The translations under genes and the position numbers were made by a program. 64,000 nucleotides of DNA, taken from contig CBDCOZ010000003.1 in NCBI GenBank assembly GCA_965220085.1, forward strand, positions 1,600,001 to 1,664,000, in the 5' to 3' direction. Each line of letters begins with the position of its first letter. Within the stretch, counting starts at the first letter, position 1. Positions 2,913-62,636 of the stretch are shown here, in pieces. The notes under the pieces were generated by a model. That model made no database searches and was not told where the DNA came from. It was given only the letters and a program-made list of their open reading frames with translations. Source of the DNA: Candidatus Oxydemutatoraceae bacterium (lineage in GTDB: Bacteria > Pseudomonadota > Gammaproteobacteria > Poriferisulfidales > Oxydemutatoraceae).

Positions 2913-4817
2913 CTAACCTCTTGTCATTATGACTTTCTGCATTCTCTTAATAAGCTCCTCGCCGGGCATAACCCCCAAATCTTTTCCATCGAGTAATCTC
3001 ACCGCAACGGTTCCGGAGGCGACTTCCGCATCGCCCGCAACTAACATATACGGAACACGCTGCAAAGTGTGGCTACGGATTTTATATCCTATTTTCTCAT
3101 TTCTCAAGTCATAATTTGCCCGGATTCCTTCTCGCCGCAAGTTTTCCGTCAGTTGGGCGGCATATTGCGCCTGCTTGTCGGTAATATTCATCACGACCGC
3201 CTGTATCGGCGCCAGCCACAAAGGCAGTTTCCCGCCATAGTGTTCAATCAATATGCCGATAAACCGCTCCAATGAGCCGAGAATAGCGCGGTGTATCATC
3301 ACCGGCGGTTTCTTGCCGCCGTCCTCATCGACATATTCCGCGCCGAGCCGCTCGGGCATGGAGAAGTCCAGTTGAATGGTGCCGCACTGCCATTTGCGCT
3401 TTAAGCTGTCTTCCAATGTGAATTCAATCTTCGGGCCATAAAAAGCCCCCTCTCCGGGTTGCGTTATGAATTCCAACCGATGATCTTTTAACACGCTCTC
3501 CAAAATATTTTCGGCGGCATTCCACAGCCGGTCGGAACCGACATGTTCTTGCGGCTTGGTCGAGAAGGCGACTATCACGTCATGAAAACCGAAATCGCGG
3601 TAGGCGTTAAAAGTCATATCGATCAACTTGCTCAACTCATCGCGCAGTTGGGCTTCGGCACAGAAAATATGCGCATCATCCTGGGTGAAACGACGCGCTC
3701 TCATCAGACCGTGTAACGTGCCCGACGGTTCGTTGCGGTGCACGATGCCAAACTCGGAAATTCTATACGGCAAATCGCGGTAACTCTTTAGGCTCTGCTT
3801 GAAAATCTCAACATGCCCGGGGCAATTCATCGGTTTGATCGCATAGTCGCGCTTTTCGGACTCGGTTACAAATATCATCTCGCCGAACTTCTGCCAGTGC
3901 CCCGAACGCTCCCATAACGAACGGTCCAGCATCTGCGGCGTATGCACCTCGTAATAATCTCCCGCTAGCAACTGACGAATATAGTCTTCCACCGTGCGAT
4001 ACAGTGTCCAACCTTTCTCGTGCCAAAAAACCATCCCCGGCGCTTCCTGCTGGAAGTGAAATAACTCCAACTGTCTGCCGAGCTTTCTGTGGTCGCGCTT
4101 CTCCGCTTCGGCCAACAACTCAAGATACTCGTTCAGATTCTTCTGCGAATCCCAGGCGGCGCCGTAAATACGTTGCAACATCTCGCGGTTGTGGTCGCCG
4201 CGCCAATAGGCGCCGGCCAGACCGGTCAATGCAAACGCCCGCAGATGGCGCGTATTCGGCACATGGGGGCCGCGGCACATATCGATATATTCTTGATGAT
4301 GGTACAAGGCAACCGCTTCATCGTCGCCTATGCCTTGGGCGATCTCCACTTTATACGGCTCGTTGCGCCGCCGAAACACCTCTATCGCTTGCTCGCGCGA
4401 TACCGCCTCGCGCACCACCTCATAGTCTTTTGCCGCAAGCTCGCGCATACGCTCTTCGATAGCGCGCATGTCGTCTTCGCCAAAGTGTTTCTCACAGGCA
4501 ATGTCGTAGTAAAAGCCGTTCTCTGTCACCGGGCCTATCGACATTTGCGCATCCGGGTAGAGCTGCTTCACCGCGTGTCCCATCAAGTGGGCGAAGGAAT
4601 GGCGGATGATCTCAAGACCTTCGCGATCACGCGGGGTAATAATCCGCACCGCGGCATCGTGATTCACTTCGACGCACGCATCCACGAGTTTGCCGTCAAC
4701 ATCGCCGGCAAGCGCAACCTCGGCCAGACCGGGGCCAATCGACTCGGCGATTTGCATGACTGTCAACGGGCGGTCAAAGGCTTTGACCGAGCCGTCGGGA
4801 AGTTTGATTTGGGGCAT
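2913..4817 (-). CDS. thrS: Threonine--tRNA ligase
   Basis: TGS N-terminus, DMCRGPHVP, RDHRKLG, KPMNCPGH, IHRAILGSLERF. Confidence 0.98.
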   Translation of the reverse strand: MPQIKLPDGSVKAFDRPLTVMQIAESIGPGLAEVALAGDVDGKLVDACVEVNHDAAVRIITPRDREGLEIIRHSFAHLMGHAVKQLYPDAQMSIGPVTENGFYYDIACEKHFGEDDMRAIEERMRELAAKDYEVVREAVSREQAIEVFRRRNEPYKVEIAQGIGDDEAVALYHHQEYIDMCRGPHVPNTRHLRAFALTGLAGAYWRGDHNREMLQRIYGAAWDSQKNLNEYLELLAEAEKRDHRKLGRQLELFHFQQEAPGMVFWHEKGWTLYRTVEDYIRQLLAGDYYEVHTPQMLDRSLWERSGHWQKFGEMIFVTESEKRDYAIKPMNCPGHVEIFKQSLKSYRDLPYRISEFGIVHRNEPSGTLHGLMRARRFTQDDAHIFCAEAQLRDELSKLIDMTFNAYRDFGFHDVIVAFSTKPQEHVGSDRLWNAAENILESVLKDHRLEFITQPGEGAFYGPKIEFTLEDSLKRKWQCGTIQLDFSMPERLGAEYVDEDGGKKPPVMIHRAILGSLERFIGILIEHYGGKLPLWLAPIQAVVMNITDKQAQYAAQLTENLRREGIRANYDLRNEKIGYKIRSHTLQRVPYMLVAGDAEVASGTVAVRLLDGKDLGVMPGEELIKRMQKVIMTRG

Positions 4818-4841
4818 CGGAACTTTATCTCATATAAATAA

Positions 4842-4906
4842 ATGCACACGAACAACTCAGTTGTTCGCGAATAGTTTAATGCACACGAACAACACTCGGT
4901 TGTTTG
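4842..4906. repeat. Two tandem palindromic units (ATGCACACGAACAAC...GTTGTT) between tRNA-Val and thrS
   Basis: Direct repeat ATGCACACGAACAAC twice, each followed by GTTGTT and able to form a hairpin; 19 bp (4888-4906) are identical to 20450-20468. Confidence 0.75.
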
Positions 4907-4918
4907 CGGGTTGCTTAA

Positions 4919-4995
4919 TGGTAGGCGCGATTGGATTCGAACCAACGACCCCCACCATGTCAAGGTGGTGCTCTAACCAACTGAGCTACGCGCCT
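4919..4995 (-). tRNA. tRNA-Val (GAC)
   Basis: Reverse complement AGGCGCGTAGCTCAGTTGGTTAGAGCACCACCTT-GAC-ATGGTGGGGGTCGTTGGTTCGAATCCAATCGCGCCTACCA: cloverleaf, T-loop and CCA end. Confidence 0.97.
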
Positions 4996-8394: not shown

Positions 8395-9525
8395 TTATTT
8401 GCTCCGTAATTTGAATTTGGAGCGGTACCCTTCCATCAGATACGCCACACGCTGTTCGCGCTCGGGGCTGTCCGATGATCGCTTGGCCCGCCCTTCCGGG
8501 GCGGCGCCGACCTTTATCGTCTCAATAGCCTGATGCGCGCCGCCCCGCACTTCGCATTCAATCATAAATAATTTGTAGTTATCCGGCGGCGACACATCGG
8601 TGCAAGCGCGCAAATGCGGAAAATCAAAGTATTGATACACACGATAGTGTTCCCGTAACAGATCAAAATAGCGCGGCTCCCTCTCGTCGGTCATGATATA
8701 GAGCGTCGCGCCTTGTGGCAAAAAAGTTTGAAGGCGATCGAGGATTGCTTGCGGCGATGTGGCCTTGTCTATGGCGGGAATGCCTTCGGCGAACTCGCCT
8801 CGCCGAATGTGCAGGGCGTAGTATTTTTCCCCCAGAACGGCAATCACATCCTGTGCGGCTGTCTTTATATCTTGCGCCACCGGCAAATGAACGATGCAAA
8901 CCGGCCAATAGCGATAATGCAGCGATCTCGGCAGCGACATCAGCAGGCGCCTGACCCACGGACGGTTCAGGTTTATATTCCTATGTCTCGGGTAACGCAC
9001 TTTATTCCACCAATAATCGGGCCACCTGCACCGCCAGTTAGTCCACTCTGCGTTGAACGCATCGGCGCGGGCGATCAATTTATAGCGGCGGTTTTTCCTC
9101 AGGCTTATTCTGCGGTGCGCGGCGATTTGCGCGAACTCGCCTCGCGCAAAATTCAATCGTTGCGATTCATCGTATTCGATATATTTGAAGTCCCCGCCGG
9201 AGATGACCCGGTTCTTGAAAAAGCGCGCCGCCAACCCATCGTATCGCACGTGTATGCTGATCTTATCCAGATCGTAATAACACTTCCACGAAGACTCAAT
9301 CCTGTAATCGAGATTATGCGACGGTCGTAATATCGGCGGCAACAGAATCGGAATGCGGTCCAACATGACCGCCTCCTCTATGAACGCCTCCAGATTACGC
9401 GTGCAATGCGTCAAACCGCGCCCGATATCATCGTCTATGCGCGCATCTTTTTGCAGCACAAATGCGCCGTCATCGCCCGCTCCCGCCGAGTACGGCGTTG
9501 CCAAATATAAAAGGTATCTATCCAT
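8395..9525 (-). CDS. Hypothetical protein, putative GT-B fucosyltransferase-like (O-FucT/NodZ-like); paralog of 26883-28019
   Basis: YYALHIRRGE and LYIMTDERE resemble the HxRRGD/xTD motifs of GDP-fucose transferases; aligns end to end with the paralog. Confidence 0.6.
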   Translation of the reverse strand: MDRYLLYLATPYSAGAGDDGAFVLQKDARIDDDIGRGLTHCTRNLEAFIEEAVMLDRIPILLPPILRPSHNLDYRIESSWKCYYDLDKISIHVRYDGLAARFFKNRVISGGDFKYIEYDESQRLNFARGEFAQIAAHRRISLRKNRRYKLIARADAFNAEWTNWRCRWPDYWWNKVRYPRHRNINLNRPWVRRLLMSLPRSLHYRYWPVCIVHLPVAQDIKTAAQDVIAVLGEKYYALHIRRGEFAEGIPAIDKATSPQAILDRLQTFLPQGATLYIMTDEREPRYFDLLREHYRVYQYFDFPHLRACTDVSPPDNYKLFMIECEVRGGAHQAIETIKVGAAPEGRAKRSSDSPEREQRVAYLMEGYRSKFKLRSK

Positions 9526-18711: not shown

Positions 18712-20354
18712 CTACCGCAACGGCCCTTCCAGGAAGACGCGCAACCGCAAGCGCAAGCGCTCCGCCAGATGTATGGTCATCATATGGGTTGCGCTGGATA
18801 AGGCGCCATCGCTCACGGTGAAGGTGAAACTGGCGTAATTGGGCTGTGCGAGCTGGTCCGATGCCGGATAGTAGGTGATGGCGCCGATGTTGTCAGCCAT
18901 CACAATGTGATCCACGGAAGCGGGGGAACCGCCCACTCGCAAAGTGCCGACGGATGGCAGAGTCTTTATGGTGATGGCGGTCAGGCTGTCGCCTTCCTCG
19001 TCCATGTACGGGAAGTCGGAGACCTTGAAAGCGTAGGGCGCGTTTTCGGTTGCCCTGATAGATACCGTCACCGAATCGTCGCTACTGACGGGGGCATCGT
19101 TGATGCTGGATATGCGGGCGGCGTCGGAGCAGAGGGCAGGGGATGCTACGGTGCCGCCTTCGGATGCCGGGGCGGCGTGTTTGTCCATGAAGAATGCGCA
19201 GGCTCTTATGTGCATTCCCCCCTGGGCCTGCAATGGGGTGAAAGTGGCCCCGGTGGCCCCGGCTATGGGACCGTAGTCGGCATCCGCCGGGGCGCCGCTG
19301 GCAGGGGCCGGGGCCTGGTACCATTGCCATTGCAGGGTGTCAGTGTCTATGCCGTTGGGTTCGGTTATGCCTCTGACGCTGGCGGTAAGCATCACATCCT
19401 CGTTGCTAACAGCGCCGATGGGGGTTAATGCGGCGAGGAGCGGAATGGGTCTGTATACCGTGGGTTTGCCGGCGGCGGCCTGCCCCCGGCTGTTTATTAT
19501 GTCTATGGTGAGGGTGGCGGCTTCGGCGGCTTCATCGGCACGGGTGGCGCGACCGCCATTATCCCGCACTCTGTATGTGAATGTGGCATAGCCCGCGCCA
19601 ACGGCGGGGTTGGCATCCGGATAGTATGCCAGATAATCCACTTCGGTGACATCCAGAAAATTGTTGGCACGGATACATCTGGGGTTGGCAGTGCAATGAG
19701 TGCTAAGAGATGAGCCATCCAAAAACGCATCCGCCAGAATACCCCGCGTGGGCACGGACACTATGTAGATGCCATCGAGGGTGTTGCCATCCTCATCGGA
19801 AAAGGGGAAGTCCGCCCGCGCAAAGAGGTACGGGGCGGCGGAACTGGCGTTGTCCGGCACCATTATGGCGCTGTCGCCGCCAACAGGCCGGTCGGCCACA
19901 TTGGCCACTGCGGCGACCGAGGTCCAGCATCGGGTCTCGTTGTTGCCGCCGTCATCGGCAAAGGCGGCGCAGACGCGGATGAACTTGCCGACATGCTCCT
20001 GCAACGGGGTGAATGTGGCGGCGGTCGCCGTGGTGATGTTGGCGTAGGCGCCGCCGCCAGTGTCGGCCACGCTCCATTGCCAAGTCGGCGTGAAGGTGGT
20101 GATGCCATCGGCATCGCCTATCATGCCTTGGACTGCGGTCAGTGCGCTGTCCTCATTGGGCCCCGTCGTGGTCAGGTTGGTGTTGTCCGCCGCCGTCACC
20201 GTCGGGGTACCGGTGGCGTTCTGCGCTTGCGCTTGGGTGCAGACGGCAAACAGAGCCGGCAGAATAAGCGTCCAGAGGCTAAGCCGAGCTAGTGTCGCCC
20301 ACCGATGCGGGGGGGGGGGGGGGGGGTATAGGTATTATTAATTTTTAAGCTCAT
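18712..20354 (-). CDS. Secreted modular Ig/cadherin-like protein with RLRLRVFLEGPLR tail; ATG at 20354 out of frame at a C18 tract (phase OFF as sequenced)
   Basis: Track ORF 18712-20199 extends upstream in frame through HRWATLARLSLWTLILPALFAVCTQAQAQ to the homopolymer; ATG AGC TTA AAA lies 5' of the tract; repeats NDAP..PY.F..SDFP..DE.G and WQW..GAT.ATFTP.Q..IR.C. Confidence 0.8.
20309..20326 (+). repeat. G18 homopolymer (C18 on the coding strand), putative slipped-strand phase-variation tract
   Basis: 18 G counted; lies 28 nt after the ATG; 16 or 19 would restore the frame. Confidence 0.85.
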
Positions 20355-20913: not shown

Positions 20914-22888
20914 TTACCGCAACGGGCCTTCAAGGAAAACGCGCAAGCGCAAGCGCAAGGCGGTTGCCACCACACGAGCGTCGGCGGAGCACAGCGGCCC
21001 CTCGGCGGTGCCTATGCTATCGGTGAAGCTGGCGCAGGCGCGGATGTATCGACCGGCATGTGCTTGCCGGGGAGTAAAAATAACATCGGTAGCGCCGGTG
21101 ATGGCGGCGTAGGCGTTGTCCATCGGGGCGCCACTGTCCGGGGCCGGGGCAGATTGCCATTGCCAGCGGATGCTACCCCGGTTGATGCCGTTGGGTTCGA
21201 TGATGCCATCTGCGGATGCAGCCAGCGGTATGTCCTGCAGGTAAGCGGTGTCGGTGGCAAGGGCGGCAGTCACCGTGGGTGCGCCGGTGGCATCCGTCGG
21301 GTCGGAGGTAATCAAGTTTATCGTGAGGGTGGCGATGCGGACGCTGGCGTTGTTGGTGCCCGCCGGGTCATCGCCGTTGTCGGTCACATTGAATCTGAAG
21401 GTAGCGTAGCTACTCTGGGCACTCTGCCCGCTGGCAGGGTAGTACGTAAGGTCCGCGATGTCGGCAACGGCTATGGTGTCGTCCGCCATGGCGGCGGCGG
21501 AGCCGTTGCGCAGGGCGCCGGATGCCGGCAACGATTCCAGAGTGACGCTGGCCAAGTCATCGCCATCCTCGTCGGCGAACGGGAAGTCGCTCGCCTTGAA
21601 AGCGTAGGGGCTGGCCATCGTCGCACCCATAGGCACATTGATGAAGCCGTCTTGCGCCACCGGCGCATCGTTGACATTGGTTGTCCGGACTGCGGCGGAA
21701 CAGAGCGGGCCCTCCTCTGCCGGGGTGGCGTGGCGATCCATAAAGGTTGCGCAGACTCTTATGTATTGGTCTGTACGGGCCTGCGTAATGACGAATGCTT
21801 CGGCGGTGGCGCCGGCTATGGCGGTGTATGCGCCGACGGCCGGGGTGCCGCTGGCCGGGGTCGGGGCAGATTGCCATTCCCACCTCAGAGTTCTCCAGTC
21901 TATGCTGTTGAGATCGGCAATGCCAAAGTAGTTGGCGGTCACCCGGGCGCCCTCGGCGGCGCTGGCGGACGGTGATGTTGTGGGCGCGCCGGTGGCCGCC
22001 ATCTGGTCCGGCGATGTCAGATCTATGAGCATGAAATTAACTCCGGTGTGATTGATGCCATCATCGTTGTCGGCCACCGGCCGGTAGACAAAGGTGGCAT
22101 AGAATCCGGTGGGTTGCTGACCGGGTATCGGGTACCAGGCCAGAGCGCCGGCGGTCAATTGGGCCACGGTTACGGTTACGGGGTTTCCGGTGCCAGTAGA
22201 GACGGGGTTGCCATTCAGGGTCAGGGTGCCCCCCGGTATCAGGCTATCAAAGGTGATGGCGGCCAGCATATCGCCATCGGGGTCTATGAACAGAAAGTCT
22301 GACGCCTTAAACCGGTATGGATTGTCGGCGGTGGCGGATGCCGGCACCGCACCGCTGTGGCGCAGGGAGGTTTGGGGCAGGTCGTTGACATCGGTCACTC
22401 TGACGGGGGCAGAGCAGATGCTGGCGGTGCGTATGCGGCTGTCCTCGGTGGCGGGGTCGCCGCCCTCGGCGGTACCCCGGCCATCGGTGTAAAAGACGCA
22501 CAGGCGCAGGTTCTTGTTCACATGGTCTTGCGAGAGCGGGGCGTATGTGTTGACGTCCCAAGCCGCCTCTTCCCATCCCAGGCCGACGGTAGTACTGAGT
22601 TGCCAACTGAAGTCAAATTGTCCTGCCGCGGGCAGGCCATCCTCATCGCTCAGGCCGGTCACGCTGGCATTGACTGTCTGCATTTGGGCCACGGTGGTGA
22701 TGAGGTCGGCGCTCCCGTCCAACACCATGCCGATGGCGCCCTGCGGCGCAGTGTTGGTCTGCGCTTGCGCTTGGGTGCAGACGGCAAACAGGGCCGACAG
22801 AATAAGCGCCCAGAGACTAAGCCGAGTTAGTGTCGCCCACCGATGCGGGGGGGGGGGGGGTATGAGTATTATTAATTTGTAAGTTCAT
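20914..22888 (-). CDS. Secreted modular Ig/cadherin-like protein with RLRLRVFLEGPLR tail; ATG at 22888 out of frame at a C14 tract (phase OFF as sequenced)
   Basis: Track ORF 20914-22728 extends upstream in frame via HRWATLTRLSLWALILSALFAVCTQAQAQ to the tract; ATG AAC TTA CAA upstream; five alternating modules. Confidence 0.8.
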
Positions 22889-26882: not shown

Positions 26883-28019
26883 TCACGCGCCTCTTCTCGG
26901 CAGCAAATCACGCGTGTCATCCATCAAATATGCCACCTTGCGCCGATACGCAAGCTCTTTTGCGGCGGCGGCGGTTTTCTTGAGGCGCGGCGGCGGCAGG
27001 TTATTGCGCACCGTTTCGACTATCTTATGCGCCCCGTCTCTGATCTCCGATTCAATCATAAACAGCTTGTGGTTATCCGGCGGTATCGCATTGATATAAG
27101 CGGCTAATTCGGGGAAATCAGAGTATTGCCACACCTTGTAATGCGCCTTCAGCGGGTCAAAATAATGCGGCTGCCTCTCATCCGTCATGATGTAGATCGT
27201 GACACCGTCCGGCAACAAGCGCTTGAGTCTTGCAATAATTGCTTCCGGAGTCGTCGCTTTGTCCATGTCGGGAAATTTGATGGCGCAATCCCCGCGCCTG
27301 ATATGCAGCGCATAATATTCGTCTCCCAATACGGCGCGCACACGCCGCGCCGTCTCCCTTATATCCGGCGCTCGCGGTAACGAAACAGCCGCCGTCGGCC
27401 AGTAACGATAGTGAAAGAGTTTGGCCAGCGACACCGTAAAATATTTGATCCATTGCTTGTTAAGAGCGTAGCCAAAATATTTTTTGCGCCGCACCTTGAC
27501 CCAGCGGTAGCGAGGCCATTTGACATTCCACGAGTGCCATTCGCGATGAGCGGTGTCGTGACGAATAATCAGGCGGCAATCGCGATTCTTTTTCAGGCTG
27601 ATCCTGCGCTGTGACGGAACCGTCGCCGACTCATCCGGCGACAAAGACAATCGATTGAAATCGTCACGCTCCAGGTACTCAAAATCCGCTCCGCTGATCA
27701 CCCGGTTCTTGAAAAAATACGATGCCAGGCCCGTATACTCAATCTCTATCCGGATGTTATCCAAGTCAATATAATCGCGCCACGACGGTTCGATGCGGCA
27801 GCCCAGATTGTGGGTCTCGGTCAATATCGGCGGCAGCAGAAGCGGGATGCGCCCCAGCATCGCCGCTTCGCCAATCAATGCGCTCAGGTTTCCGACAGTA
27901 TGGGTGATGCCGTGCCCGAGACCCTCTCTGATATGCGCATCCTCGCGCACAGACAAGCGGCCTTGCGCATCGGCGCATATTGAGTATGGCGTTGCCAAAT
28001 ATGCGAGGTATTTCTTCAT
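26883..28019 (-). CDS. Hypothetical protein, putative GT-B fucosyltransferase-like; paralog of 8395-9525
   Basis: YYALHIRRGD, IYIMTDERQ; shared blocks YLATPYS, FFKNRVISG, HYRYWP, PPDN.KLFMIE. Confidence 0.6.
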   Translation of the reverse strand: MKKYLAYLATPYSICADAQGRLSVREDAHIREGLGHGITHTVGNLSALIGEAAMLGRIPLLLPPILTETHNLGCRIEPSWRDYIDLDNIRIEIEYTGLASYFFKNRVISGADFEYLERDDFNRLSLSPDESATVPSQRRISLKKNRDCRLIIRHDTAHREWHSWNVKWPRYRWVKVRRKKYFGYALNKQWIKYFTVSLAKLFHYRYWPTAAVSLPRAPDIRETARRVRAVLGDEYYALHIRRGDCAIKFPDMDKATTPEAIIARLKRLLPDGVTIYIMTDERQPHYFDPLKAHYKVWQYSDFPELAAYINAIPPDNHKLFMIESEIRDGAHKIVETVRNNLPPPRLKKTAAAAKELAYRRKVAYLMDDTRDLLPRRGA

Positions 28020-56505: not shown

Positions 56506-57429
56506 TTACAATTTCTCCGCCACACGCAGGCTGGCGCTGCGGGCGCGCGGGTTGCGCGCCAATTCGGCCTCGTCCGCAACGATGCGCCCTATCTTGCGCA
56601 ACGCCACATGGGAATAATCGTCCGCCGCCGGCAGATTGAGCGGCGCTTTTCGCGGTTGCGAATACTCCCGGATAAAGTTTTTGACGATGCGGTCTTCCAG
56701 CGAATGGAAACTGATGACGACGAGCCGCCCGCTGCTCCGCAGCAACCGCCTCGCGTGTTCCAGCGCCTGCGACAATTCCTCCAACTCGTTGTTAATAAAT
56801 ATGCGCAATGCCAAAAAAGCGCGAGTGGCCGGGCGCTTGCGCTCGCGCGCGCCCGACACACTCGCAATAAGTTCCGCCAACTCGCGAGCAGTGCGGAGGG
56901 GACGACTGCCCGCGATGGCGGCGGATATTCTTTTGGCATTGCGCTCCTCGCCGAACTCTGTCAATACCCTGGCGATCTCGGAAACCGGCGCGCGATTGAT
57001 CCATTCGGCGGCGGAGATACCGCGGCTGGTATCCATCCGCATATCGAGCGACGCATCGTCGTCAAAACTAAAACCGCGATTTGAAGCGAGTTGCGGCGAC
57101 GAAACACCGAGGTCAAAGAGAATTCCCGCCACCGCGCCCTCCATGTTGTCGTCGGTCAGCAAAGAACCGATCGCGGCGAACGACGCATGACAAATTGAGA
57201 AACGCTGATCGTTGCGCAATGTCGTTCTGGCGTGTTCGCACGCTTGTATGTCCTTGTCGAAAGCAAGCAGGCGTCCTTGTCTGCCTATCCTTTTGAGAAT
57301 CTCTCGGCTGTGCCCGCCGCGACCGTAAGTGGCATCTATATAAACCCGCCCCGGAGTTATCCGCAAAGCCTCTATGGCCGCATCCGGCAATACCGGCTCG
57401 TGCTTGTCTGCGGCGAATTCCTGCGCCAT
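56506..57429 (-). CDS. rsmH: 16S rRNA m4C1402 methyltransferase
   Basis: DATYGRGGHS, DLGVSSPQL, LDMRMD, ISFHSLEDR, NPRARSA. Confidence 0.98.
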   Translation of the reverse strand: MAQEFAADKHEPVLPDAAIEALRITPGRVYIDATYGRGGHSREILKRIGRQGRLLAFDKDIQACEHARTTLRNDQRFSICHASFAAIGSLLTDDNMEGAVAGILFDLGVSSPQLASNRGFSFDDDASLDMRMDTSRGISAAEWINRAPVSEIARVLTEFGEERNAKRISAAIAGSRPLRTARELAELIASVSGARERKRPATRAFLALRIFINNELEELSQALEHARRLLRSSGRLVVISFHSLEDRIVKNFIREYSQPRKAPLNLPAADDYSHVALRKIGRIVADEAELARNPRARSASLRVAEKL

Positions 57430-57457
57430 CACTCACGGCTCTTGGCCCGAATATTGC

Positions 57458-57922
57458 TTAGAAACGAACATTGCCGAGGGTGTCGTCGATTTCCCTATCG
57501 CTGCTCTTTTCCTCCATTCTGGCGGCGCATTCCTGCTCCCACCGTTTTTGATCCCACAGCTCAAAGCGATGTCCCTGCCCTATAAAGAGACCTTGCTTTT
57601 GCAGCTTGGCATGTTCGCGCAGCGGGGGTGTCAATGAAATCCGACCTTGCGAGTCAATCTCGCATTCGGTCGCGTAGCCGATCATCAGCCGTTGCAAAAA
57701 ACGCGATTGCTTTTCAAGCGTCGGCAGATCGAGCAGACTCTTCTCTACTTCGGGCCATGCGGGTTTGGGATAGAGCAACAAGCAACCGTCGACATCCGCA
57801 GTGATGACCAACTCGCCCTTGCACGAGACGCTCAAGCCCTGACGATAGCGCGCCGGTATTGCCAACCTGCCCTTGGCATCTACGGTCACGTTGCTCGCCC
57901 CTCTGAAAAATGTTGAATCCAT
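57458..57922 (-). CDS. mraZ: Transcriptional regulator MraZ
   Basis: FRG..VDAKGRLAIP, DSQGRI, FELWD. Confidence 0.96.
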   Translation of the reverse strand: MDSTFFRGASNVTVDAKGRLAIPARYRQGLSVSCKGELVITADVDGCLLLYPKPAWPEVEKSLLDLPTLEKQSRFLQRLMIGYATECEIDSQGRISLTPPLREHAKLQKQGLFIGQGHRFELWDQKRWEQECAARMEEKSSDREIDDTLGNVRF

Positions 57923-57929
57923 AGGTATA

Positions 57930-57980
57930 TCCCACTCAATGCCCCCATTATACATAAATCCCCACATAAAACCACCCTTC
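57930..57980 (-). promoter_or_regulatory. Putative dcw promoter with MraZ-type TGGG boxes and TATAAT
   Basis: Minus strand GGGTGGTTTTATGTGGGGATTTATGTATAATGGGGGCATTGAGTGGGA upstream of mraZ. Confidence 0.55.
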
Positions 57981-58025
57981 TTATCCAGCGGGCGACAACC
58001 CGCCATACTCGTCGGCGATTCCGCG

Positions 58026-58038
58026 CAAATCATTGATT
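58026..58038 (-). promoter_or_regulatory. Possible IHF site
   Basis: AATCAATGATTTG fits the WATCAANNNNTTR consensus, upstream of mraZ. Confidence 0.3.
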
Positions 58039-58461
58039 ATCTGGGGTTTGTCAGCGGATTGCGTGATGCATGACATATTGGACATGGGGCAAATGCTGTG
58101 TGGCATGGGCACGTGCGCGCTATCCACCGCAATGCGCGAGAGGCGTTGCGAGCCCCTTGCTAAGGCGGGCGCTATGCCGACGGGTCGCGCATACTCGGCG
58201 CATCTGATGGGGCGCATCGGCAAGCAGTCGCGCAACGGTGCGCAGGACAAGCCGCGCTCGGCACCACGGTTGCATTTGTAGATGACGCGCATTTTGTGGT
58301 AGAGTACGCAATACTTATTTTGCGGAACACAAATGATTTAAGAAGTCACAAACAATTAAGTATTGTTTGTGCTCTCATATCGTTTGTGCCTCATTGAAAT
58401 GAAATGTTATTTGTGTGCATTAAACATGGTTGCGCCGGACAGGCCGTCAAGAAACAATAGA

Positions 58462-59694
58462 ATGAATTGCAAAACTTTCGATACGACTCCCGCGCAACGG
58501 GGCGCAACAATGATACGGCGCAGTCTTTGGGTGCTTCTGTTGCTCGCTGTTGTCTGCGCTCAGGCACAAGCGCAGACAAATCCGGTGACAGCTTCCACTA
58601 GCGTGGATGTATACACCACGCACACCGCCAACAACCCATACAGGTTCAAGATAGCCGACTTCCCTTTTACTGATACGAACGGCCGTAGCCTGCTTAGAGT
58701 GGTGTTTCAATTTCCCGGCCCCGACAACTTCAATGGCAACCTGCGCAATCCTCTCTCTCCAACAGTCGTACTCGAACAGACATACGTCAGAACCGCAGAC
58801 GATCTCAGGGACGGTAATCTGGTCTATTACCCAGCGGCGGGTCAGACCCCGCAAACTGGCTACGACAGCTTTACGTTCCAGGTGCAGGTTCTGAGAGAGC
58901 AGACGAATACGCAAACCTTCTACGACACCAGTAACGAGGCTACCATGACCATCAACCTGGTGATTGAGCCCCCGGCTGCCCCCACCGGCACCCCCGCCGT
59001 GACCGCCACCGACAGCATGGCCACTGCCCACAATGAGGATGTGGAGCTGACCGCTAGCACAGGCACCGTAATCGATGACAACTACATTGATACCGACACC
59101 CTGATGTGGCAGTGGCAACAGTCCGCCACCATGGCCGGCACATATGAAAACATCGACGGATCCAACGCCGCCACTTTCACACCCCAGCAGGAACATGTCG
59201 ACCAATACATCCGCGTCTGCCTCCGTTTCACCGATGGCATAGGCACCGTCGAGGGGCCGCTGTGTTCCCCCGGCAATATCATCACCGCTGTCAATGATGC
59301 CCCCACCAGCGAAAATGCTTTTGTGGATGTGCCCATCACCGCAACCGCAGACGAGCCCTATGTCTTCAAGACCTCCGACTTTCCATTCATGGACGAGGAG
59401 GATGGTACCACTCTGGGCGGCGTAGACATAGCCAGCACCGTCGCATCTGGCAAGGGCGAATTGCGCATTGGAAGCGGGTCTGCCGCCCTCGGCAACCTGC
59501 CCGCGGGCTCAATCAATATACTCACCTATTATCCCCCGCCTAACATCACCGCTACCCCTAACTTTGCCACTTTCACCTTCAAAGTGACCGATGTCGGCGG
59601 CGCCAGAAGCGAAATCCATAGGATGACCATCAACCTGAAGTCCTTCGATATACGCTTGCGGTTGCGCCTCTTCCTCGAAGGCCCGCTACGATAG
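58462..59694 (+). CDS. Secreted modular Ig/cadherin-like protein with RLRLRLFLEGPLR tail; in frame, no homopolymer tract
   Basis: MNCKTFDTTPAQRGATMIRRSLWVLLLLAVVCAQAQAQ signal peptide; same two module types and tail as the paralogs; start chosen by homology to their ATGs. Confidence 0.85.
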   Translation: MNCKTFDTTPAQRGATMIRRSLWVLLLLAVVCAQAQAQTNPVTASTSVDVYTTHTANNPYRFKIADFPFTDTNGRSLLRVVFQFPGPDNFNGNLRNPLSPTVVLEQTYVRTADDLRDGNLVYYPAAGQTPQTGYDSFTFQVQVLREQTNTQTFYDTSNEATMTINLVIEPPAAPTGTPAVTATDSMATAHNEDVELTASTGTVIDDNYIDTDTLMWQWQQSATMAGTYENIDGSNAATFTPQQEHVDQYIRVCLRFTDGIGTVEGPLCSPGNIITAVNDAPTSENAFVDVPITATADEPYVFKTSDFPFMDEEDGTTLGGVDIASTVASGKGELRIGSGSAALGNLPAGSINILTYYPPPNITATPNFATFTFKVTDVGGARSEIHRMTINLKSFDIRLRLRLFLEGPLR

Positions 59695-60562
59695 CGCGAG
59701 CCATCCTCGGCGCTTGCACGACACACTCTTGAAGGCCCGCTACGATAGCGCGAGCAACCCACGGCGCTCGCACGACACACTCTCTTAAAGGCCGGTTGCG
59801 ATAGCGCAAGCAACCCACGGCGCTCGCACCGACACACTCTCTTGAAGGCCCGCTGCGATAGCGCGAGCAACCCACGGCACTCGCACGACACACTCTCTTG
59901 AAGGCCGGTTGCGATAGCGCGAGCAACCCACGGCGCTCGCACGACACACTCTCTTGAAGGCCCGCTGCGATAGCGCGAGCAACCCACGGCGCTCGCACGA
60001 CACACTCTCTTGAAGGCCGGCTGCGATAGCGCAAGCAACCCACGGCGCTCGCACAACACACTCTCTTGAAGGCCGGCTGCGATAGCGCGAGCAACCACAG
60101 CACTCGCACGACACACTCTCTTGAAGGCCGGCTGCGATAGCGCGAGCCATCCCCGGCGCTCGCACGACACACCCTTGAAGGCCGGCTGCGATAGCGCGAG
60201 CAACCCACGGCGCTCGCACGACACACTCTCTTGAAGGCCGGCTGCGATAGCGCGAGCAACCCACGGCGCTCGCACGACACACTCTCTTGAAGGCCGGCTG
60301 CGATAGCGCGAGCAACCCACGGCGCTCGCACGACACACTCTCTTGAAGGCCCGTTGCGATAGCGCGAGCAACCCACGGTGCTCGCACGACACACTCTTGA
60401 AGGCCGGCTGCGATAGCGCGAGCAACCCACGGCGCTCGCACGACACACTCTTGAAGGCCGGCTGCGATAGCGCGAGCCATCCCCGGCGCTCGCACGACAC
60501 TCTCTTGAAGGCCCGTTGCGATAGCGCGAGCAACCCACGGCGCTCGCACGACACACCCCTTG
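59677..60562 (+). repeat. Tandem array of 16 units of 54-57 bp, consensus GAAGGCCGGCTGCGATAGCGCGAGCAACCCACGGCGCTCGCACGACACACTCTCTT
   Basis: Unit starts counted at 59677, 59731, 59787, 59844, 59900, 59956, 60012, 60068, 60123, 60177, 60233, 60289, 60345, 60399, 60453, 60507; no unique spacers. Confidence 0.95.
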
Positions 60563-60784
60563 GAGCTGACGAGCGCGTAGCCCGACGACAACCGCAAACT
60601 TTCCGCTCGCAATCGTGTCCGTCGCGCCGTTTTGATGCGCGCCCCGCAGACAGCCCCGCAACGAAGAGGGAAGCATATTTGACTCCGCCCGCATATTAAA
60701 TGAGGGGAATGTGAAAGAGCGCGTCCTCAAATCGGACGCTAAAGTTGCGGGCAGACGGTTGACTGATAACAAACTTTCTGCCGA

Positions 60785-60816
60785 AAAATAAAAAAGGGTG
60801 TGTTGCCACACCCTTT
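60785..60816 (-). terminator. Rho-independent terminator
   Basis: Minus strand AAAGGGTGTG-GCAA-CACACCCTTT followed by a T-rich tail; just downstream of the 60854-61129 ORF. Confidence 0.75.
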
Positions 60817-60853
60817 ATAGAAACCACAATGATGGCTAAAATGATGGTTTGGG

Positions 60854-61129
60854 TTATAAGTTGCTTACTTGCTTTTCAATCTTGCCCAGCCTTTTGTTGA
60901 TTGCACGAAATTGGGCGCTGTTGTTTTGCCGATTCGTTTTTATGCTCTTTTCAATGGACGCTTTGGCGGCGATAATTTCTCCCAAAAGAATCTCCTGCCC
61001 CTCCTTCAAAGGGGCGACCGCTTCCTCAATGACATCTCTAAAGGCATTAGCAAGATCATCCGCGCTTCCATTTGGTTTTTTCCGTTTCATGATTCCCTCC
61101 TTTTTTACAGTTGCCTTCGGATGCGGCAA
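60854..61129 (-). CDS. Small AT-rich hypothetical protein, helical/coiled-coil-like (likely start MKRKK at 61090)
   Basis: AAGGAGGG RBS upstream of the ATG at 61090; terminator downstream; amphipathic FRAINKRLGKIEKQVSNL. Confidence 0.6.
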   Translation of the reverse strand: MPHPKATVKKEGIMKRKKPNGSADDLANAFRDVIEEAVAPLKEGQEILLGEIIAAKASIEKSIKTNRQNNSAQFRAINKRLGKIEKQVSNL

Positions 61130-61427
61130 CGGATATAGTTGGAAATATGATAGCGCAGAAATAAAAAAAGCGTATGATGCATGACATAGCGGTTAAAGCG
61201 TTCATTTCGTGTTGAAGCCGGCAATCCGAATCCTTCCGGCATGATTCGCCTTCGCATAGGGCTTATGCCCTGACAGACGGTCGACCGCGTAGGCGTACTT
61301 CGGTCGCACTTGCCCCAGAGCCGATGAGACCGCCGGCTATGTCGCCGTCACAAAAGCGCCCAAGCAGATCCTCGGCAGCCGCCTCCGCCGAGCGGCCATT
61401 CGTTCGCCGAGCAAGAGCGGCGGGTGT

Positions 61428-62636
61428 TTACGATTTTCGGTTCTGCAAGCGCAGGCGCAGGGCGTTTAACTTGATGAAGCCTTCGGCATCGCGTTGATCA
61501 AAACTGCCGCCGTCATCCTCAAAACTGGCCATCTTCCGGTCAAACAGGCTGTTCGGCGAGCGCCGTCCGAGCGCCGTCACATTGCCTTTGTATAGACGCA
61601 GACGCACATCGCCGTTCACATCGCGCTGACTTTCGTCGATCATCCTCTGCATCATCGCGCGTTCCTGACTCCACCAATACCCGTTGTAGATCAGCGAAGC
61701 ATAACGCGGCATCAATTCATCTTTCAGGTGCGCCACTTCGCGATCCAGCGTCAGCGATTCAATCGCGCGGCGCGCTTTGAGCAATACGCTGCCGCCGGGG
61801 GTTTCATAGCAGCCGCGCGATTTGATCCCGATATACCGATTCTCCACGATATCAATCCGGCCGATGCCGTGCGCGCCCGCCAATTGATTGAGGCGGGACA
61901 ACAAAGCCGCCGGCGACAACATTTCGCCATCCAGCGCCACCGGGTCGCCGTGTTGAAAACCGATCTCAATATCAGCCGGCTGCGCGGGAGCCCGCTCCGG
62001 CGCGCAACTGCGTTGCCACATCGCATCGGCGGGGGCCTGCCACGGATCCTCCAACTCCTCGCCCTCATACGAACTGTGCAGCAGGTTGGCATCCGTTGAA
62101 TACGGCGATTTGCCGCTGCGGGATTCCACTTCGATGCCGTGCGCGGCGGCATAAGCCAGCAGGTCACTGCGCGAAACAAAATCCCATTCGCGCCACGGCG
62201 AAACGATCCGGATGTCGGGGTTGAGCGCATACGCGCCCAGTTCAAAACGTATCTGGTCGTTGCCTTTGCCGGTCGCGCCGTGTGCGATGGCATCGGCGCC
62301 GACTTCCCCGGCAATCTCTGTCAGGCGCTTGGCAATCAACGGGCGGGCGATAGAGGTGCCGAGCAGGTATTCGCCTTCGTAAATCGCATTGGCGCGAAAC
62401 ATGGGAAAGACAAAATCGCGCACGAAAGTCTCGCGCAGATCTTCGATATAGAAGTCGGCCGCGCCCAACGCTCTGGCTTTCGCCTCGACTTGGCCGAGGT
62501 CTTCGCCCTGCCCGATATCGGCGGTGAAGGTATAGACTTCGTAGCCGCGCTCCTTTTGCAACCATTTTAATATGACCGACGTATCCAGTCCGCCCGAATA
62601 AGCCAGTACCACTTTGGCAGCGCCGTTCATCATCAT
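61428..62636 (-). CDS. argG: Argininosuccinate synthase
   Basis: [46 protein letters not shown]. Confidence 0.98.

Follow-up and report, generated by a model that had tools for sequence, protein, structure and literature searches.

A tandem array of 16 units, each 54–57 nt in length, starts within the 3′ end of a gene for a secreted protein (g3) in a 64,000-nt stretch of the genome of Candidatus Oxydemutatoraceae bacterium (contig CBDCOZ010000003.1, positions 1,600,001 to 1,664,000; referred to below as the window). We lean towards regarding this array as a bacterial minisatellite, or variable-number tandem repeat (VNTR), that arose through slippage or unequal recombination of a 3′ module belonging to the gene family of g3, and that is tolerated as every unit keeps the stop codon. 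The amplified module would run from the last codons of a conserved C-terminal tail through the stop codon and a 6-bp inverted repeat to a CA/CT-rich spacer, and in the same genome at least two further members of the family would be followed by amplified copies of it. There is no sign of a specific function in the array sequence.

Tandem Repeats Finder reports a repeat at 59677..60556 with a period of 56, 15.9 copies, 92% matches, 2% indels, and a score of 1464, and cutting at the GAAGG anchor resolves it into 16 head-to-tail units in one orientation, confirming the array that an initial annotation of this DNA had claimed at this position. Mean column identity in the 16-row unit alignment is 93%. 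Each unit is composed of EG(P/R)LR codons and TAG, followed by GCGAGC-N10-GCTCGC and then by the CA/CT-rich spacer. Unit 1 opens with GAA GGC CCG CTA CGA TAG, which corresponds to the last five codons and the stop of g3 (EGPLR-stop), and the open reading frame (ORF) ending at 59694 bears out the earlier statement that the first unit starts inside the coding sequence. Nearly every later unit was said to restore this tail motif, and this is the case: an exact CTTGAAGGCC[C/G]G[C/T]T[G/A]CGATAG is present in 14 of the 15 units after unit 1, AAA replaces GAA in unit 3, and CGATAG is present in 16 of 16. Eleven units have a perfect inverted repeat (GCGAGC-N9-10-GCTCGC) and the other five have one with a single mismatch, and the differences in unit length reside in the ACAC/TCTC stretch, so that the inverted repeat and variable stretch described initially are both present. 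A stop-plus-hairpin pattern has 15 matches in the window, all of them within the array, compared with a mean of 0.04 in 100 shuffles, and the best blastn-short matches to the unit elsewhere in the 64 kb are only 10–19 nt long with E >= 1.3.

The units are similar without being uniform, and 14 of the 16 have distinct sequences. Units 10–12 (60177–60344) are mutually identical, and the alternation of two versions in units 3–6 (Table 1) suggests, from the sequence, a duplicated two-unit block. The loop variant that had been noted in units 1, 9, and 15 is an exact match in all three, and has one further, unrelated match in the window at 4031. These three patterns would be signs of growth and homogenization by slippage and unequal recombination. 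At the codon for the otherwise invariant proline of the tail, six units are of a Pro type and ten of an Arg type, and this drift implies that units 2–16 are free of protein constraint. Both the proximal and distal ends of the array are sharp, and shuffle tests show that the flanks are not unit-like. The distal flank was considered as a decayed 17th unit and rejected (its local alignment score is 16, where shuffles average 13.4 with standard deviation 2.3, and 52 of 300 shuffles scored as high), as was the inclusion of the upstream Leu-Arg-coding stretch in the unit, for which 182 of 300 shuffles scored equally well.

Table 1. Coordinates of the array, its parts, and associated features in the window
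Feature	Position	Strand	Remarks
Gene g1	18712..20199	-	Paralogue of g3, ends LRLRLRVFLEGPLR-TAG (tail 18712-18753); no array behind
Gene g2	20914..22728	-	Paralogue of g3, ends LRLRLRVFLEGPLR-TAA (tail 20914-20955); no array behind
Gene g3	58510..59694	+	394-aa secreted protein, ends RLRLRLFLEGPLR-stop
Tail coding sequence and TAG stop	59653..59694	+	13 residues; array begins inside, at 59677
Tandem array	59677..60562	+	16 units, 54-57 nt; Tandem Repeats Finder and unit parsing
Loop variant CCATCC[C/T]CGG	59701..59711 (unit 1); also 60147 (unit 9), 60477 (unit 15)	+	Exact match
Units 3-6	59787..60011	+	Arg-TTG and Pro-CTG versions alternating; unit alignment and distance matrix
Antisense ORF over array (P0316)	59630..60676	-	348-aa public predicted protein; protein-set match
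Unique distal flank	60563..60792	+	No significant likeness to unit
Terminator-like hairpin with T-run	60793..60816	-	Predicted terminator of convergent 91-aa ORF 60854-61129 (-)

The codons from which the array starts belong to a conserved tail, with consensus RLRLR[L/V]FLEGPLR, that ends at least 50 distinct cadherin-like proteins; at least 36 tail proteins are encoded in one 2.05-Mb genome. The tail is present at the end of 40 of the 50 listed relatives of g3 (two of the 40 with one altered residue), 34 of them encoded on the 2,046,636-bp contig that also encodes the window protein, and a representative search found it in 9 of 144 further proteins, one of which is g1; with g2 added these make the total of 50, the stored set of 49 being without g2. 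At least three different kinds of domain precede the tail, and in an alignment of 42 tail proteins nine tail positions are the sole invariant columns, with four more tail positions conserved at 90% or above. A codon comparison of five tail genes (the three in the window and two whose tails were inferred from antisense ORFs) shows silent variation at 8 of 13 tail codons and residue changes at two positions only, and these synonymous differences indicate that the tail is kept by selection on the peptide, and not by recent gene conversion.

Neither Pfam nor NCBIfam has a model that covers the tail, its motif strings were found in no paper of the literature searched, and the family is undescribed so far as those searches reach. 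Known C-terminal sorting signals consist of a motif, then a transmembrane helix, and then a basic cluster. The tail resembles the PEP-CTERM, GlyGly-CTERM, and LPXTG tags in being a short invariant motif at the extreme C-terminus of many divergent secreted proteins encoded in one genome, and in its predicted lack of structure, but differs from them in that no hydrophobic helix follows; there is no hydrophobic stretch past FLEGPLR, the protein ends two residues after EGP, and no curated NCBIfam or Pfam model of a known CTERM class is matched. On the basis of its sequence, the tail is a candidate for a new sorting or anchoring tag. Its Leu-Arg part is encoded by a hexanucleotide repeat (CGC/CGG TTG) present two to three times at 18745-18760 (-), 20940-20960 (-), and 59650-59667 (+), and the number of Leu-Arg pairs differs among paralogues (e.g. 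LNLRLRLRLF in P0005). All eight Leu codons in these repeats of the window genes are TTG, compared with 37% of Leu codons in 28 housekeeping genes; a nucleotide-level constraint was rejected as the explanation, as one antisense-inferred tail must use CTN at such a position and the bias is not general.

The protein encoded by g3 has a signal peptide and three beta-sandwich (cadherin/Ig-like) domains. It matches no Pfam family, and searches against NCBIfam gave only sub-threshold matches for its body (ZirU, tandem-95, and others). An AlphaFold2 model using 41 relatives as the alignment has a mean predicted local distance difference test (pLDDT) score of 90.1, in which the tail forms an unstructured extension with no secondary structure and pLDDT values of 62 and 58 per 10-residue block. 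Foldseek with this model returns cadherin ectodomains, SiiE, GhpA, and S-layer proteins, and the ESM Atlas only clusters of Cadherin_4/Big_9 type at 0.84–0.89. Searching with a profile of the family brings up 19,940 proteins at E <= 0.001, most of which are giant and multi-domain, and g1 matches Big_9 at 2.1e-10 and paralogues PF17803 or PF17963, in keeping with the bacterial cadherin-like/Big_9 class. The term 'adhesin' used for g3 initially is a fold-level guess based on the modeled tandem cadherin/Ig-like beta-sandwiches. There is an alternative in-frame start for g3 at an ATG at 58462, 16 codons upstream (58462–58509), encoding MNCKTFDTTPAQRGAT. A conserved N-terminal leader is seen among the g3 paralogues, and because leaders similar to MNCKTFDTTPAQRGAT (MN.Q.F.T.P...) precede the signal peptide in several of them, the true start of g3 may be the upstream one. 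ARAGORN also calls a 90-nt tRNA-Ile (gat) at 59225-59314 (-) within the g3 coding sequence, probably a false positive; the Rfam tRNA model has no match there at gathering score.

The array is read with few stops on its minus strand (0, 2, and 0 in the three frames, with 12 each in two frames and 6 in the third on the plus strand), and the minus strand has ORFs of 341, 393, and 275 aa; the scarcity of stops keeps an antisense ORF open, over which gene callers predict the 348-aa protein P0316. We used this spurious antisense ORF as a protein-database probe for further arrays. It has three matches in all, these being itself, P0317 (166 aa), and P0318 (198 aa), the latter two encoded on the same 2,046,636-bp contig and both built of the same three frame-versions of the array unit. 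The positions of the stop anchor in these proteins correspond to two further arrays of eight and seven units of ~58 nt, with anchor spacings of 58 nt seven times in one and of 58, 58, 58, 56, 58, and 58 in the other; as a control, the same calculation on P0316 recovers the true 54–57 nt series. In a codon-compatibility test, each antisense ORF runs into the 3′ end of one tail gene, with 24 of 24 compatible residues for P0024 (next best 19) and 38 of 38 for P0021 (next best 15), and 20 of 20 for g3 as the window control. The two new arrays thus partly answer the question, raised with the initial annotation, of whether copies of the unit abut genes ending in FLEGPLR, as both adjoin tail genes.

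Homology between the three arrays extends along the entire unit. Per-frame peptide identity averages 0.47–1.00 within arrays and 0.37–0.70 between them, as concerted evolution of the units in each array would produce. The arrays, at different loci, differ in copy number (16, at least 8, and at least 7), and three is the minimum number of arrays because the probe sees only those covered by predicted proteins of 110–350 aa. A last-domain tree was built from 35 of the 49 tail proteins, without g2 or the 14 in which a different type of domain precedes the tail. Each of the three array genes belongs to its own sister pair in this tree (support 100/98, 100/100, and 99/97), and the three pairs nest in one 20-row clade with support of 93/75. 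A degenerate unit pattern has two single matches in a collection of genome contigs that does not include this genome or its relatives, in unrelated metagenome-assembled genomes of Flavobacteriales and Anaerolineales, which we take to be chance. The array had been presented as built from the adhesin's own 3′ end, and its first unit is indeed the end of g3; given the two further arrays it is neither unique nor simply an invention of g3.

P0316 could instead be a real minus-strand gene with a repetitive product, P0317 and P0318 being its counterparts, and the open frames predicted over all three arrays are what would be expected of one. However, with unit lengths of 54, 55, 56, 57, and 58 nt the repeated motif changes frame again and again, the product overlaps the 3′ end of g3 in antisense, its relatives are only those at the other two arrays, and neither of two overlapping antisense ORFs (59630-60811 and 59529-60554) has a Pfam or NCBIfam match. 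We judge from the sequence that P0316 is not a gene and give its coding nature next to no credence; all three annotations are probably spurious.

The events envisaged for a minisatellite are as follows. A first duplication would have occurred, probably between short imperfect homologies at the module ends, CCTCGAAG (59670-59680) and CCTTGGAG (60556-60565), and the array would then have grown and been homogenized through replication slippage and unequal recombination. It would be tolerated because it starts past the last gene-specific codon and because each unit carries a stop, such that changes in copy number would leave the protein intact so long as the first unit is of the Pro type. Most likely the array belongs to the untranslated 3′ portion of the g3 transcript. 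There is no plus-strand terminator-like site between 59694 and 60793, and the array is therefore probably transcribed with g3; the hairpin at the end of the distal flank (Table 1) is the first of its kind downstream of g3. The route by slippage or unequal recombination, the transcription within a 3′ untranslated region (UTR), and the neutrality are the parts of this reading that we infer. Of the three explanations offered initially, a neutral VNTR seeded at the conserved tail is the one that the evidence favors.

Several observations weigh against this explanation. The chief one is that a single design is present behind three genes in three sister pairs, which could mean that it is selected rather than tolerated. 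CGATAG is kept throughout the array and the stop anchor in all eight and all seven units of the others, although this conservation is a weak point, because variable sites within one array do not vary independently of each other. The array ends share a microhomology that is imperfect (6/8), copy-number polymorphism is what defines a VNTR and the array is known here from one genome, and the other two arrays are known from antisense protein predictions and not from DNA.

The recurrence of the design behind three genes is also what would be expected of a working 3′-UTR or RNA element, in which the module binds a protein or small RNA that also recognizes single modules on other family mRNAs, or protects or processes the 3′ end, with the multiple copies acting as a sponge or dosage device. 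The probable transcription of the array with g3 fits with this, as does a short homology of 6–8 nt just past the stop, (A)GCGC[G/A]AG, that is common to the three window genes and in all three is complementary to CTTGCGC of the Leu-Arg codons. The structural tests do not support such an element. Folding z-scores of the unit are +0.44 in sense and -0.26 in antisense, those of the g1 and g2 tails range from -0.34 to -0.74, and the whole array, at +3.4, folds worse than its shuffles. None of the six stem pairs is changed on both sides, with 4 of 84 stem cells broken, in a covariation test that has little power with only 14 distinct, closely related rows, and units 3 and 7 have G-to-A changes in the 5′ arm for which the opposite arm shows no compensating change. 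Rfam has no matches at E <= 1 in 57000–62000, and only two tRNAs in the whole window at gathering score. Furthermore, the DNA after the g1 and g2 stops is unlike the hairpin-plus-spacer of the unit, and the module is therefore not family-wide; hairpin or spacer remnants in the 60 nt past these stops were looked for and rejected, with 317 of 500 and 455 of 500 shuffles scoring as well. We consider an RNA element unlikely, and the structured 3′ RNA proposed initially finds no support. Two related candidates were discarded: a Rho-loading C-rich RNA, as the array and g3 have the same C/G ratio (1.4), and a target or initiation-of-mutagenic-homing-like end of a diversity-generating retroelement, as no reverse transcriptase is present among the 58 different ORFs of the 64-kb window that were scanned with Pfam and the tails differ at synonymous sites.

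A further explanation is that the array is a recombination substrate in a surface-variation system, providing either landing sites for the swapping of gene bodies or a reservoir from which the last six codons of the gene (Pro- versus Arg-type) are replaced. The family is suited to such a role in having at least 50 members with conserved ends and variable middles, and a tail that follows at least three kinds of preceding domain; the commonest unit polymorphism is at the otherwise invariant Pro codon, and the Leu and Arg codons of the units also occur in the tails of other paralogues. On the other side, no integrase, recombinase, or transposase family is present among the 58 ORFs, there is no gene or gene fragment between units, and unit 1 is of the Pro type in the sole genome seen. 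Many synonymous differences separate the tails of the three window genes, leaving them with only short identical runs in common, and such runs are too short for efficient homologous exchange. Recombination of this kind appears distinctly improbable, and the earlier suggestion that the units are empty sites for tail-bearing cassettes lacks positive evidence, with no recombinase among the ORFs and only those short runs shared by the tails.

The same explanation draws on the 5′ ends of g1 and g2, whose bodies are out of frame with their start codons through poly-C tracts. Upstream of g1 there is an ATG (20354-20352) followed by nine codons, a C18 tract (20326-20309), and then signal-peptide codons, and g2 is similarly preceded by an ATG (22888-22886), nine codons, a C14 tract (22860-22847), and signal-peptide codons. 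As assembled here, neither ATG is in frame with the gene body, and the frame would be restored by 16 or 19 C in g1 and by 13 or 16 C in g2. The region of the upstream leader of g3 is the position of the tract in other family members, g3 itself being without one. At least four Pro residues lie within the first 45 residues in 6 of 49 tail proteins, many others being annotated from an internal start. The g1 and g2 tracts look like sites of slipped-strand phase variation, although a homopolymer miscount in the assembly is possible, and these long tracts make the family one rich in slippage-prone repeats. Such variation would suit a genome, as well as a family, whose repeats are commonly unstable. 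Homopolymeric tracts in the 5′ coding regions of surface-protein genes are known from Neisseria, Haemophilus, and Campylobacter, and the likeness to such simple-sequence contingency loci lies in the C18 and C14 tracts between start codon and signal peptide; it concerns the 5′ ends of the paralogues and not the array, and the tracts are known here from sequence alone. A bolder proposal is that the arrays are a working part of surface variation, in which the tail is a new C-terminal signal and recombination reversibly exchanges Pro-type for Arg- or Ala-type tails, complementing the 5′ poly-C switch, or in which the transcribed array titrates a factor that recognizes the tail module. We regard this as a slim prospect.

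An assembly artefact, with a shorter repeat expanded or unrelated copies wrongly joined by the assembler, has to be considered for arrays of ~900 bp, which are beyond the span of short reads, and poly-C lengths such as C18 and C14 are often miscounted in long-read assemblies. However, 14 of the 16 units are distinct and their variants are ordered, unlike the collapse or inflation of identical copies, and two more arrays of the same design are present in the 2,046,636-bp contig. An artefact is thus very improbable.

The regular spacing and the short palindrome in each unit are reminiscent of known repeat systems, namely clustered regularly interspaced short palindromic repeats (CRISPR), clusters of repetitive extragenic palindromic (REP) sequences or bacterial interspersed mosaic elements (BIMEs), and integron attC arrays, but membership of any of these is scarcely credible. 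As for CRISPR, which the array resembles in its regular period and per-unit palindrome, the initial annotation had already set it aside, and correctly so: there are no unique spacers, every base between palindromes is itself repeated, no Cas family is present among the window ORFs scanned, and unit 1 is coding. REP or BIME clusters are a poor match, in that the units have a single orientation, no dispersed copies are present in the window, and no Y1 transposase is encoded by the ORFs scanned. An integron is likewise not indicated, with no integrase among these ORFs and no ORFs between units. The array is without a match in collections of plasmids and phages. Neisseria-type DNA uptake sequences were also considered; none was found in the window, and they became irrelevant once SecA indicated the Gammaproteobacteria.

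What the array does have are the attributes of a minisatellite, with head-to-tail units in the range of ~10–100 bp at high identity. It shares with generic minisatellite dynamics its sharp ends, the short imperfect homology at the junctions, identical neighboring units, and higher-order blocks, and a report on fission yeast describes reversible microhomology-mediated tandem duplication (bioRxiv 10.1101/2020.03.03.972455). It differs from generic minisatellites in that the module is expanded at no fewer than three paralogous genes, always with the conserved tail codons and stop. The closest known system is the mycobacterial interspersed repetitive unit (MIRU) type of VNTR, in which several gene boundaries carry repeats whose units are tens of bases long (PMC12548453, PMC2734929). 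The two have in common head-to-tail units of this size, a position at gene boundaries, and register with flanking coding signals, and as with MIRUs the same unit family is in tandem at several loci of one genome. MIRUs lie between co-oriented genes and are described as inserting at start codons, whereas this array lies between convergent genes and does not couple an internal ORF to a downstream start; its unit also derives from the family's own 3′ coding end and carries the stop, and its host is gammaproteobacterial. Intergenic TAACTGA direct repeats have been described from 169 loci in the Beggiatoaceae, with a 7-nt unit present in anything from two to some tens of copies (PMC4679880); these and the array are both stop-containing intergenic direct repeats in gammaproteobacteria, but TAACTGA does not derive from the coding end of a gene.

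Taken as a minisatellite, the array is unremarkable, and would be of use mainly as a strain marker for an uncultured gammaproteobacterial lineage. Its context is unusual, being that of a large family with a tail matching no described sorting signal, of frame-breaking poly-C tracts, and of a module amplified behind three members or more. If the tail is a sorting signal it would represent a new export or anchoring route, and if the arrays do have a part in switching they would amount to a 3′-end contingency device of a new kind.

The window is part of the core chromosome and includes pheS/T, thrS, uvrB, ilvC, secA, argJ, and the entire dcw (division and cell wall) cluster from ftsZ to mraZ. Among the matches listed for SecA, one relative is 70% identical and the others are ~60% identical and belong to Gammaproteobacteria including Competibacter, Contendobacter, and Caldichromatium. 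The order after mraZ is g3, the array, the convergent 91-aa ORF, argG, and pyrC, such that the array sits between g3 (+) and the ORF at 60854-61129 (-). This ORF and those at 8395-9525 (-) and 26883-28019 (-), of 91, 376, and 378 aa respectively, are without a Pfam or NCBIfam match. A separate 39-bp tandem repeat of 2.1 copies is present at 4841-4920, adjoining a tRNA-Val (4919-4995).

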